64,000 nucleotides of DNA from Candidatus Hermodarchaeota archaeon (GTDB lineage: Archaea > Asgardarchaeota > Lokiarchaeia > Sigyniarchaeales > SOKP01): NCBI GenBank assembly GCA_048885525.1, contig JBHLLP010000005.1, forward strand, positions 1 to 64,000, written 5' to 3'. The translations under genes were made by a program, and so were the position numbers. The notes beneath the pieces are model-generated. The model saw only the letters and a list, made by a program, of their open reading frames with translations, searched no databases and was not told the origin of the DNA. Position 1 is the first letter of the stretch; every line of letters begins with the position of its first letter. Shown here piece after piece: positions 20,682 through 24,829 of the stretch.

Positions 20682-21051
20682 ATAAAGAAATTTAACAATT
20701 TATATCATTTTTAAGAATATTTGATGAGTGTAATTTTACTAGTATATATATTTAATATATTGATCGAAAATGATACATTTTCAATATGAAATGTTTGGAA
20801 ATGTTAAATTTATAAGATTTTTTTTACGAAATTCGCCAGTTTCAATTAATTGAAACCGTTGGATAAAAATTTCAAGTATTAACTCATCCTATATTACTGA
20901 AAGAGAATTGATTTGTTATAATAATTTAATTTTAATAATATAGACTATTTACAATATCATAATATATTTCTTAGAAATATTCTAAGAACTAAAAGATAAC
21001 ATCGTTAATCTTTACAATTCAGGAGGTTAGGATTAACAAAGGTGAAAAATA

Positions 21052-23028
21052 TTGTCTGATAAACAGACCAATGAAAGTGTTAACGAAGATCAACCAAGAA
21101 TAGGTGTGTTCGTATGCCATTGAGGTATCAATATCGCAGGGATCTTAGATATTCCTAAAATTGTTGAAGAAATAGACAAATTAGAAAATGTTTGGGCTTA
21201 TCCTTATTTATCTTTGTGTACTGAAGGTGGATCCACGGAAATTAAAGAGAAACACGAAGATCGAAAATTTGATAGAATTTTAGTAGCAGCTTGCACCCCA
21301 AAGACTCATCAACCCGTTTTCCATGCAATATTAAAAGAAATGGGATTGCCTCCAAGATACTTAGAATTTGTAAACATTCGAGAGCATTGTTCCTTTGTAC
21401 ATCAAGCTCCAGAAGTACGCGAAAGAGCTACATTAAAAGCCATTGAATTAATCAAAGCCGGGATCGCTCGAGCAAGATTATTGGAAGATGTACCTACTAA
21501 AACTGTACCAGTAGAACCTGCAGCTCTAGTTGTAGGTGGAGGAATTGCTGGCTTATCTGCTGCTATCGATTTAGGTGATGCTGGATATAAGGTATATTTA
21601 GTTGAAAAAAATACTACAATTGGTGGACGTATGTCTCAACTTGATAGAACATTTCCTACCGATGATTGTTCTATATGAATCTTGGGCCCAAAAATGCTTG
21701 AAGCCAATCGACATCCAAACATAGAGATCTTATCTTATAGCGATGTTGATGTTATAGATGGCTATATCGGTAATTTTGAAGTCAAAGTACGAAGAAAAGC
21801 ACGATTCGTTGATGAAACAAAATGTACTGGATGTGGTACATGTAGAGATGTGTGTCCAGTTTACACGAGTAATTATTTTGATGAACATCTATCTGCAAGA
21901 AAAGTTATTGATATTGCTTTTGCTCAAGCGGTACCAGCAGTTTCGCAACTTGAGAGAAAAGTATGCATTGAATGCTTTGCATGCGTTGATGCGTGTGAAC
22001 AAGAGGCAATTGATTTTAGTCAGCAGGATAAAATTGAAGCACTTAAAGTTGGTACAATAATAGTTGCTACGGGTTGGGACCTCTATCAAGGCGATGACTA
22101 TGGATATGGTATATATGAAAATGTCATTAACCAAATAGAATTAGAACGAATCCTTGCTCCAAATGGTCCTACTTATGGACATTTAAAGCGCCCATCTGAT
22201 GGAAAACGTCCTACAAAAGTGCTGTTCATTAATTGCGTTGGTTCACGAGATATTAATAAAAATGCTCATTGTAGTGTTATATGTTGTAATCTTTCACTTA
22301 AAAATTCCAAACTAATAAAATCAGAGTATCCTGATTCACAAATCCTTTGTACATATATAGATATGCGATGTGCTGGAAAAGATTATGAAGAATACTATAG
22401 AAGATCTCGTGATGCTGGTATAATTTTTGTTAAAGGATTAGTAGGGAAAATTGAAGAAGATCCACTAACAAAAAATCTTAAAGTACAATTTGAACCAGTT
22501 GGGACAGATACTGTAGTTTCTATGGAATTCCACATGGTTGTGTTGTCGCCTGCTTCATTACCATCTCAAGGTACAATTGAAATTGCGAGAGTGTTAAACA
22601 TGGAGAAAAGTCCTGATGGGTTCTTAAAAGAATACCACGCTCGATTAGATCCAATTAGCACAAAAGTACCCGGAATTTATATTTGCGGTTCTGCTCAAGG
22701 GCAAAAAGAAATTGATAAATCGGTAAGTCAAGCGAGAGGAGCAGCATCAGTAGCAGGTATTCCAATGGGGAAGGGAGAATATACGATGGAATTAATCAGA
22801 GCTTCTCCCTCAGATGAACGATGTGCTAAATGCTATAAATGTATAGAAGCTTGTCCATACACAGCAATTTCAGTAAATGAAAAAGGAAATATTGTAGTTG
22901 ACCTAATAAATTGTCGCGGTTGTGGAACATGTGCGGGTCTATGTCCTTCAAAGGCAATTGAATTAACATACTTTAGAGATGATCAATATATGGCATTAGT
23001 AGATGAATTATTACCAATAGAGGAATAG
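21052..23028 (+). CDS. hdrA: Heterodisulfide reductase subunit A, selenoprotein (658 aa; Sec at codons 24 and 209)
   Basis: One frame runs from TTG 21052, with GGTGA RBS at 21041-21045. TGA 21121-21123 lies in RIGVFVCH-U-GINIAG and TGA 21676-21678 in FPTDDCSI-U-ILGPKM. Both are conserved HdrA Cys positions. This joins ORF-track pieces 21214..21678 and 21682..23028. Ends in TAG. Confidence 0.93.
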
Positions 23029-23041
23029 AGAGGTAGATAAA

Positions 23042-23500
23042 ATGGCAGAAGCAAATGATATTAAAATAATTGTTTATGCTTGCTGGAAATGAGGTTATGG
23101 TTCTGCTGATATGGCTGGTACTATTAGAGCACAATATCCAGATTCGATTAGAAATGTTTTAGTACCATGCTCGGGACGTGTAGGATCAGACTTAATAATG
23201 CGAGCATTTGGAAGAGGTGCAGATGGAGTAGTAATTAATGCTTGATATCCAGGTGAATGTGATTATGAAACAGGAAATTACCACGCATATAGACAAGTTG
23301 AATACGTTAAAGAAATTTTAAGAGTTGTTGGTATGAGTCCAGAGAGAATTAAGATAATCTACTGTACTGCTGCTGAAGGTCAAAAATTCCAAAATGAAGC
23401 TATAGAAATTGATAAAATAATCAGGAAATTAGGACCAAGTCCTCTACGTACAAAAGGCACACCTAAAAAAGAAAAAGCTAAGGCGAAAGCTAAAGCTTAA
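23042..23500 (+). CDS. mvhD: MvhD/VhuD [2Fe-2S] hydrogenase subunit D, selenoprotein (152 aa; Sec at codons 17 and 68)
   Basis: Missing from the ORF track. Translates as MAEANDIKIIVYACWK-U-GYGSADMAG..VPCSGRV..GADGVVINA-U-YPGECDYETGN..GMSPERI..CTAAEGQKF..LGPSPL. TGAs at 23090-23092 and 23243-23245. GAGGT RBS at 23030-23034. Ends in TAA. Confidence 0.93.
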
Positions 23501-23508
23501 AAAATTTA

Positions 23509-23582
23509 ATGTGTTGACTGATGAAGCTGAGTTAAAAAAAACGAGAGCTCAGTTGAAGAAATGGGTGCACCATATAACACAT
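23509..23582 (+). promoter_or_regulatory. Eukaryote-type SECIS element
   Basis: Lower helix AUGUGUUG (23509-16) pairs with UAACACAU (23575-82). Core AUGA (23521-24) sits opposite GA (23555-56). Upper 9-bp helix 23525-33 pairs with 23546-54. The apical loop AAAAAAAACGAG is A-rich. Confidence 0.88.
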
Positions 23583-23689
23583 AAAAATGGTTTGATAAAA
23601 TTTAATATAAATATTTATAATTTATTTTAAAAAATTTGGGAAATTTAAGAAAATATAAAAGTATTGTAAATAGTTAGAGTTGGAATTAC

Positions 23690-24829
23690 ATGGAAGCAAT
23701 GGCAGAATATTTGATAAAGATTGAAGATTTCCCCAAAATCTTGGCAATTTTACTAAAAGAGAAAACGGTAGACAAAATTATCGGTGCTGAATTGAGAGTT
23801 GATAAGAAATCTGGTAATATAGATAGATTTACTGTTCAGCCTAAGTTAGCAGAAAAAGAGGAAGATCTAAAGGATTTTCCATTAACTCCTTTAATTGCAT
23901 TTGGATATGCTAGAACTGATTCTGCTTCAAAATTTTTACATAAATCCGTGGAGGGTGCAATGAAGGAGAAAGTAGGTCTTATTGCACGGCCATGTGATAC
24001 AAGAGCATTAATTGAGCTTGCTAAAATAAAACAGGTAAATCTTGATAATCTTTTTATAATTGGTATTGAAGATAGAGGGATGCTTCCTAAAGCAGGAAGA
24101 GAGATGAGATCTATTAAAGATGTTGATCCTATTAAAATCCTTAAAGAAAAAGTTGGAGATAAAGGTCTTATTGTCAAGATGGAAGATGGAACAACTAAAG
24201 AGTTAGAGCTTACTGTTGCTGAGAATTGTTTGAGATGCTATCGAAAAATTCCAGTTATAGCGGATTTAACTGTTAGCGATCTTGGTATTCCAGTTGATTC
24301 AGACGAGATAATTTTAAAGGTATATTCAGATAAAGGAAGTGAGATTCTAGAAAAATCAGGTGTAAAAGCAAAAACACTACCAGATAAAGAAAAGAAAGCT
24401 CATCTAGCAAAATATACTGAAATAATCGATAAAGCAAAAGAAAAGCGAACAAAGGATTTAGAAGAATGGGAGAAGCTTTCACAAGAAGAAAAAATAGCAG
24501 AACTTCTTAAATGCACGATGTGCAACACTTGTATAAGAGGATGCCCAGTTTGCTACTGTGTGGATTGTATTTTGCAGAAAAAGAGAAAGGCCAAAAACAT
24601 TGATAAAGCAACATATCAATTAACGCGTATAGCACATGATGCTGATAGATGCGTAGAATGTGGAAACTGTGATAATAACTGTCCTCAGAATCTACCTTTA
24701 TCACTATATTTTCAATCATTAAATGAAGCCTTTAAGAAGAAGTTTAAATACGAGGCAGGCATGTCTCTTGAGGATATTCCGTTTCGATCTGGAAAAGCAA
24801 TTTCCCAGATGGAATTAGAAAAAACATAA
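23690..24829 (+). CDS. FdhB/FrhB-family flavin/Fe-S subunit
   Basis: ARPCDTRALIEL, CLRC..ADLTVSD, CTMCNTCIRGCPVCYC and CVECGNCDNNCP. Confidence 0.85.
   Translation: MEAMAEYLIKIEDFPKILAILLKEKTVDKIIGAELRVDKKSGNIDRFTVQPKLAEKEEDLKDFPLTPLIAFGYARTDSASKFLHKSVEGAMKEKVGLIARPCDTRALIELAKIKQVNLDNLFIIGIEDRGMLPKAGREMRSIKDVDPIKILKEKVGDKGLIVKMEDGTTKELELTVAENCLRCYRKIPVIADLTVSDLGIPVDSDEIILKVYSDKGSEILEKSGVKAKTLPDKEKKAHLAKYTEIIDKAKEKRTKDLEEWEKLSQEEKIAELLKCTMCNTCIRGCPVCYCVDCILQKKRKAKNIDKATYQLTRIAHDADRCVECGNCDNNCPQNLPLSLYFQSLNEAFKKKFKYEAGMSLEDIPFRSGKAISQMELEKT
24788..24829 (+). repeat. Gene-tail direct repeat C1
   Basis: TCTGGAAAAGCAATTTCCCAGATGGAATTAGAAAAAACATAA matches 28521-28562 at 37/42 nt. Confidence 0.9.

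Follow-up and report, generated by a model that had tools for sequence, protein, structure and literature searches.

How can one RNA element cause four in-frame stop codons, spread over two adjacent genes, to be read as an amino acid? This question is raised by the hdrA-vhuD locus in the 64-kb stretch of DNA analysed here (hereafter the window), which is part of contig C5 of a 3.58-Mb draft metagenome-assembled genome (MAG; 87 contigs, 99% complete, 29% G+C) from a Promethearchaeota (Lokiarchaeia-type Asgard) archaeon. Comparative analysis indicates that the four UGA codons are very probably decoded as selenocysteine (Sec) by means of a single, shared Sec insertion sequence (SECIS) downstream of both genes. 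In the mechanism that we favour, hdrA and vhuD would form a bicistronic selenoprotein operon in which the four UGAs are translated as Sec by tRNA-Sec(UCA) and an EFSec-type factor; decoding would be directed by one eukaryote-like lokiSECIS in the 3' untranslated region (UTR), 20 nt behind vhuD, which would act over 0.28-2.4 kb and past the cistron boundary.

The first gene, hdrA (21052-23028, on the forward strand, as are all features of the window described below), encodes an HdrA-like flavo-FeS protein of 658 aa, with a TTG start, opposite which orthologues have ATG or GTG, and with a TAG stop. Its in-frame TGAs at 21121-21123 and 21676-21678 correspond to U24 (VCH-U-GINIAG) and U209 (DCSI-U-ILGPK), respectively. 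A spacer of only 13 nt (23029-23041), which contains a GAGGT ribosome-binding site, no oligo-T run, and too little room for a SECIS, separates hdrA from vhuD/mvhD, a gene of the FlpD family (23042-23500; 152 aa, ATG start, TAA stop), in which TGAs at 23090-23092 and 23243-23245 correspond to U17 (CWK-U-GYGSADMAGTIR) and U68 (NA-U-YPGECDYETGNYHAYR, with YPGEC). Both genes are hidden from routine annotation because the standard table breaks hdrA and leaves vhuD as short fragments: under table 11, hdrA appears as two open reading frames (ORFs; 21214-21678 and 21682-23028) and mvhD only as pieces of 44 and 55 aa. A preliminary description of this stretch had placed the TGAs at 21121, 21676, 23090 and 23243, on Cys positions of the two families, taken TAG and TAA as the real stops, judged the 13-nt gap too short for a SECIS, and pointed out that the ORF track splits hdrA and misses mvhD entirely; the frames and alignments bear out each of these statements, with one of the four positions, U209, falling on a Sec rather than a Cys in the solved structures.

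All four sites fall on Cys or Sec positions of the two protein families. Residues 14-654 of HdrA align with solved HdrA chains (E 4.8e-200), and FAD/NAD Rossmann and 4Fe-4S domains were identified with Pfam. U209, which aligns to X (Sec) in 9sfi_A, is the canonical HdrA Sec site (about residue 200), whereas U24 aligns to Cys in the structure-chain alignment. Full-length similarity and Sec at the canonical position, the two marks of an HdrA selenoprotein, are thus both present, and both sites are Sec in all four Sec-hdrA paralogues of the genome. MvhD matches the Pfam FlpD family (PF02662; E 6.5e-40, 136 bits), and U17 and U68 both align to Cys of solved MvhD chains, as is characteristic of VhuD/MvhD/FrhD selenoproteins, which combine an FlpD domain with Sec at two conserved Cys sites. 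The two mvhD TGAs are retained in more than 100 matches among 80 genomes of the same order, and are therefore neither chance occurrences nor sequencing errors.

The element behind vhuD (23509-23582) was delimited by folding, by comparison with orthologues, with covariance models (CMs) and by covariation, and takes the form of a three-helix junction. An outer helix 1 (AUGUGUU at 23509-23515 with AACACAU at 23576-23582) encloses an AUGA core (23521-23524), a main stem of 9 bp (helix 2; 23525-23533 with 23546-23554) capped by a 12-nt apical loop (23534-23545; A8-CGAG), the opposing GA (23555-23556), and a small hairpin on the 3' side (23561-23564 with 23570-23573; AUGG-GUGCA-CCAU). The outer helix begins 8 nt past the vhuD stop, and the AUGA core lies 20 nt past that stop and 2400 nt from the first hdrA UGA, in agreement with the lone candidate that had been proposed 8 nt after mvhD and 2.4 kb from the first UGA; the local fold of the region has a z of -2.6. 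Our orthologue set for the SECIS consisted of the 30 top-ranking mvhD loci in 80 genomes of the order; all 30 have the element, with AUGA and GA invariant throughout. Double-sided (compensatory) changes occur in seven of the nine main-stem pairs among the orthologues and in all nine among paralogue groups, although the pair adjoining the core is often non-canonical. The apical loop is 11-13 nt long in the orthologues and always ends in AG, and the one-nt excess here is due to the length of the A-run. The element therefore has the core (AUGA 5' of the stem, with GA or AA 3' of it), the covarying stem, the loop (about 11 nt, with some five adenines at its start and a final G that mostly follows an A) and the position just 3' of a selenoprotein coding sequence, in this case behind vhuD only, that define the lokiSECIS.

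The preliminary description had called this a "eukaryote-type" SECIS, which holds for the AUGA...GA core and the A-rich loop. The designation should be read as "eukaryote-like", however, because the Rfam eukaryotic SECIS models do not match and helix 2 is only 9 bp long: searched with SECIS_1-5, the window contains no match that reaches the gathering threshold, and the interval 20900-23800 contains none even at E <= 10. Two other Rfam hits, SNORD24 (E 3.8) and a group II D5 fragment (E 7.6), were rejected as chance matches. The GAA_A-type SECIS of other archaea (GAA/A bulge, upper stem of three G-C/C-G pairs) gave no matches in a pattern scan of the operon region and the whole window on both strands.

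Does this element serve both genes? The best-surviving alternative, which we nevertheless consider unlikely, is that it serves vhuD only, and that the UGAs of hdrA depend on some other signal that has escaped recognition, be it an in-frame structure nearby, an element of the 5' UTR or a trans-acting factor. A relaxed pattern scan did return two weak AUGA...stem...GA/AA candidates (20770-20807 and 21575-21605). Neither of these has the A-rich/AG loop, neither was scored by a CM, and they lie in unconserved or ordinary coding sequence; they were rejected as SECIS elements for want of conservation and of any CM score. The two CMs, R1 built from orthologues and R2 from diverse paralogues and both run with filters off, each gave a single significant match in the 64-kb window, the SECIS behind vhuD (106.6 bits for R1 and 81.9 bits for R2), with the next-best matches (E 0.18 and 0.38) far from the operon. 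No second SECIS was thus detected in the window by either model, including upstream of or inside hdrA, where the preliminary description had considered that a separate element might lie.

Several further comparisons speak against separate recoding of hdrA. Synonymous-site entropy across 25 hdrA orthologues revealed no constrained stretch after U24 (94th percentile) or U209 (14th percentile), and synonymous constraint was confined to the translation start and the extreme 3' end of the gene, which holds the vhuD ribosome-binding site. UGA is wholly avoided as an hdrA stop, with 34 TAG, 28 TAA and no TGA among 62 orthologous loci, whereas the vhuD stop is TGA in nine of the 62 (L043, L048, L051, L054, L061 and four more loci), a share that matches the 13% genome background, and in these nine it lies 18-20 nt before the SECIS core. 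This asymmetry fits a model in which a UGA at the hdrA stop would be within reach of the SECIS, read through, and selected against, while a UGA 18-20 nt from the core would be too close to be recoded. As a separate observation on these stops, TAG is strongly over-represented at the end of hdrA relative to its 15% genome background.

The paralogous loci of the genome follow the same pattern. Each of the three Sec-hdrA/Sec-vhuD pairs (on contigs C5, C6 and C24) has one SECIS, located behind vhuD, whereas a solitary Sec-hdrA with three TGAs (on contig C64) needs, and has, a SECIS of its own directly behind hdrA; a CM search found no SECIS at the four Cys-type hdrA loci. The spacer between hdrA and vhuD measures 11-20 nt in all 62 orthologous loci, and an A/T-rich block at 20917-20965, about 90-135 nt upstream of hdrA, is the one part of the upstream region that hardly varies when 260 nt are aligned across 24 orthologues. 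From its composition and conservation this block is the probable promoter of the operon (B recognition element (BRE)/TATA region), and we infer that hdrA and vhuD are transcribed together from it. The five independent tests, namely CM uniqueness, synonymous sites, stop codons, paralogue loci, and spacer and promoter, agree with one another and favour a shared SECIS. The suggestion of the preliminary description that one 3' element recodes four UGAs in two ORFs thus receives support from indirect tests, and coincides with the conclusion published in 2016.

A second alternative is that TGA does not encode Sec at all, owing to genome-wide reassignment or to read-through by a near-cognate tRNA (Trp, Cys or Gly). 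The frames do stay open, as is shown by related short contigs in which some gene callers rendered TGA as W. TGA is not reassigned and is still an ordinary stop, however, because it ends 13% of the frames of at least 250 codons in the genome (and 6 of the 43 long frames in the window), and the in-frame TGAs occur at Cys/Sec positions only. Moreover, the genome contains, besides the SECIS, a full Sec pathway, and a gene or candidate gene was found for every component for which the preliminary description had proposed a search. A tRNA-SeC with anticodon TCA (63.6 bits) is directly adjoined by SepSecS (385 bits), and a gene for an EFSec-like GTPase (226 bits) lies about 5.4 kb beyond the tRNA gene, so that the three are clustered within 8 kb (C8:64962-72757; loci L001, L005 and L008). 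A PSTK-like kinase (155 bits) is also present, as are two selD genes in tandem on contig C16, one with an in-frame TGA (SelD, 175 bits) and one without. Together these are the components expected of the archaeal/eukaryotic pathway: tRNA-Sec, PSTK, SepSecS, EFSec and SelD. The EFSec-like and PSTK-like proteins are each the best match but fall below the strict NCBIfam cut-offs. Given these observations, we regard translation of TGA as anything other than Sec as very unlikely. The remaining idea, that the TGAs are assembly or sequencing errors or mark decaying pseudogenes, draws on the draft, metagenome-assembled state of the genome (87 contigs) but is already effectively refuted, because more than 100 loci from 80 genomes, as well as independent public MAGs, carry these TGAs at identical codons, and the protein is conserved on both flanks of each TGA.

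Some points weigh against Sec decoding through one shared SECIS and temper our confidence in it. The orthologues that we counted are phylogenetically non-independent, and the counts therefore overstate significance. To our knowledge, no organism has yet provided an experimental demonstration of a SECIS that acts past a stop codon and re-initiation. The case is built from sequence comparison, and two members of the Sec pathway, PSTK and EFSec, score below strict cut-offs of models that were built on methanogens and bacteria.

The finding is already known, because the arrangement was published by Mariotti et al. (2016; PMC4989117) and catalogued by Huang et al. (2024; PMC11227280). According to the main text of the former, HdrA and VhuD of Loki genomes are invariably found in tandem, separated by a very short spacer; up to six UGAs, spread over some 2 kb, may depend on one element; UGA stops occur in VhuD and never in HdrA; and no SBP2 exists in Asgard. 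The lokiSECIS is defined there as an element directly after vhuD with AUGA, a main stem of 9 bp, a loop rich in A (about 11 nt, with AG at its end), and GA. It is further noted in that text that HdrA of the Sec-using archaea described earlier contains a single Sec, and that the SECIS neighbouring HdrA is presumed to have degenerated in Lokiarchaeota. Compared with the pairs as described there, our locus has the same gene order, short spacer, multi-Sec HdrA that includes the canonical site, two-Sec VhuD, and single AUGA/9-bp/A-rich-AG/GA element behind vhuD, and the same use of stops, with only UAA or UAG in hdrA and sometimes UGA in vhuD. It differs from that account in its loop of 12 rather than 11 nt and in the position of the element, 20 nt past the stop rather than abutting it. 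The solitary Sec-hdrA mentioned above (C64:11405-13510; L029:1501-3606) departs from the rule of the literature that the two genes always occur in tandem: the third of its TGAs lies in a CSxxCC motif, no vhuD follows it, and a SECIS of its own is located about 100 nt past the gene.

Huang et al. (2024) found 227 Sec-using genomes among roughly 410 Asgard genomes analysed, with hdrA-frhD clusters and type I eSECIS-like structures, and reached the same conclusion of a shared SECIS; our locus differs from these clusters in nothing substantive. Their supplementary sequences include orthologues that are nearly identical and have X at all four of these positions: VFVCHXGINIAG occurs 15 times and IIVYACWKXGYGSADMAG 9 times in the sets, and CWKXG occurs 159 times in the Asgard FrhD set.

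More distant relatives share parts of this system. The HdrA and VhuD selenoproteins of Methanococcales and Methanopyrus belong to the same families and share the hdrA-vhuD synteny, the canonical HdrA Sec, the two Sec of VhuD and a SECIS in the 3' UTR that acts at a distance (520-679 nt; Peiter, 2022; PMC9622424). Their SECIS is of the GAA_A type, however, and the GAA_A bulge and GC-rich stems were not found here in our pattern scan. Like eukaryotic type I SECIS (RF00031 and relatives), the Asgard element has an AUGA...GA kink-turn-like core, an apical A-run and a 3'-UTR site, and, like the SECIS of the multi-UGA SELENOP mRNA, it would act at long range on several UGAs with a minimal UGA-SECIS distance. 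Unlike the eukaryotic type I element, it would belong to a polycistronic mRNA, and it has a helix 2 of 9 bp and an extra hairpin on the 3' strand, and has no Rfam match, and no SBP2 is known in Asgard according to the literature.

The extra hairpin merits closer attention, as the closing helix, the SECIS helix and the small 3'-strand hairpin are common to all eight SECIS elements that R2 identified in the genome, four of which are at hdrA loci. Examples are the element of the window, L022:1929-2027, L024:1391-1493 (reverse strand), L029:3504-3606 and those of L112-L114. R1, although built from orthologues, fits paralogous and other-family elements to the full three-helix architecture despite their differing sequences. 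Helix 1 is GUGUU/AACAC here and CCGAAA/UUUCGG, UCUGAAAA/UUUUCAGA, UCCGAC/GUCGGA or AUCGAA/UUCGAU elsewhere, and the side hairpin is AUGG/CCAU here and AACCC/GGGUU, ACCUU/AAGGU or AUCC/GGAU elsewhere. The paralogous elements were aligned in a structure-aware manner (alignments A3 and A4); MAFFT misaligned the paralogous cores, and the resulting alignment (A2) was set aside. One row of A3 (L038:3317-3363) was a false positive that a tighter E-value removed. Across 28 diverse elements, double-sided changes were found in all 20 pairs, and 92.6% of cells pair, compared with 31-44% when the partners are slid, in an alignment that was fitted to the model. Folding of single sequences, unconstrained and therefore a check independent of that alignment, recovered both the outer helix and the 3' hairpin for 84% of the 55 elements examined, compared with 35% for controls whose flanks had been shuffled.

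This architecture suggests the hypothesis of a resemblance to the k-junction, a k-turn with a third helix on its non-bulged strand (PMC4005666; PMC10573300). As in the k-junction, the Asgard SECIS has a G.A/A.G core with a bulged 5' strand, and the 3' strand, which has no bulge, carries the extra hairpin in the interval from the core to the closing helix. The Asgard element differs in its linkers of 4 and 2 nt and its 5' loop of 7 nt, with the comparison being one of secondary structure on our side. We tentatively raise the possibility, which we hold to be somewhat less probable than its contrary, that SECIS elements of Asgard archaea form a three-way junction resembling the k-junction, with a third helix that is a required and hitherto undescribed determinant, for example a docking site for a putative SECIS-binding factor that would permit long-range cross-cistron recoding. 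The main texts of Mariotti et al. (2016) and Huang et al. (2024) make no mention of a lower helix with a side hairpin for the hdrA/vhuD SECIS, and the three-helix covariation may, to the extent of these texts, be an addition beyond the published accounts.

The other four SECIS elements of the genome lie outside hdrA loci. At C1:79290-79769 (L112:1040-1519, forward strand), a 159-aa ORF with two adjacent in-frame TGAs (VVHAD-U-U-ADVMKERL) is followed by a SECIS (C1:79751-79849). This Sec-Sec ORF matches no Pfam family. Of the 61 genomes of the family, 53 contain homologues, all of which keep the TGA pair; public records give them as hypothetical proteins of 118 aa that break off at the first TGA, or show WW for the pair under code 4. 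The 40 C-terminal residues past the TGA pair are conserved, and a SECIS was found 3' of all ten homologues checked. The motifs of this ORF are absent from the sequence sets of Huang et al. (2024), and the passages of a 2026 review considered here name no similar family among Asgard selenoprotein families. From these sequence comparisons we consider it a candidate for an unreported selenoprotein family. The AlphaFold model of the protein (predicted local distance difference test (pLDDT) score of 78) gave only weak beta-grasp/Urm1-like matches with Foldseek (best E 1.6e-3), and such a fold, predicted from a model, is a lead and not an assignment.

Three further elements were observed. An 82-aa predicted membrane protein (C35:26270-26518; L113:1264-1512, forward strand) carries a single in-frame TGA (GGGG-U-AC), ends in a UGA stop that directly adjoins a SECIS (C35:26507-26607), and is present in 4 of the 61 genomes, all of the same genus and each with a SECIS. 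On contig C70, a hydrophobic ORF of 61 aa (L114:200-385, forward strand) with one in-frame TGA (LA-U-GN) is situated upstream of a 52-bit SECIS match at L114:449-549. A weaker SECIS match of 35 bits at C80:5947-6050 lies without an obvious UGA-containing ORF.

As for the surroundings of the operon, the gene 3' of the SECIS (23690-24829; Pfam PF04432, 1.4e-10) encodes an FrhB/FdhB-like Fe-S protein, and the same gene starts 3' of the SECIS in orthologues. On the other side, the 5' leader of hdrA (21016-21047) contains two conserved Shine-Dalgarno-like boxes, AGGAGGUUAGG and AAGGUGA, before the TTG/GTG/ATG start.

Overall, in the archaeal lineage nearest to eukaryotes, a single RNA element apparently changes the meaning of four stop codons that lie in two reading frames and up to 2.4 kb away from it. 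As the arrangement has been published since 2016, the window represents another instance of it and not a new concept; what is gained is an independent examination, with about 60 additional loci, of whether the SECIS is shared, through the asymmetry of stop codons, the lack of internal constraint, and the solitary hdrA with its own SECIS. The three-helix covariation would indicate which mutants to make for a reporter assay, and the element could serve as bait for the missing SECIS-binding protein. Furthermore, the SECIS CM flags selenoprotein candidates that neither the family lists nor the sequence sets of published catalogues contain, so far as the portions of these considered here extend.

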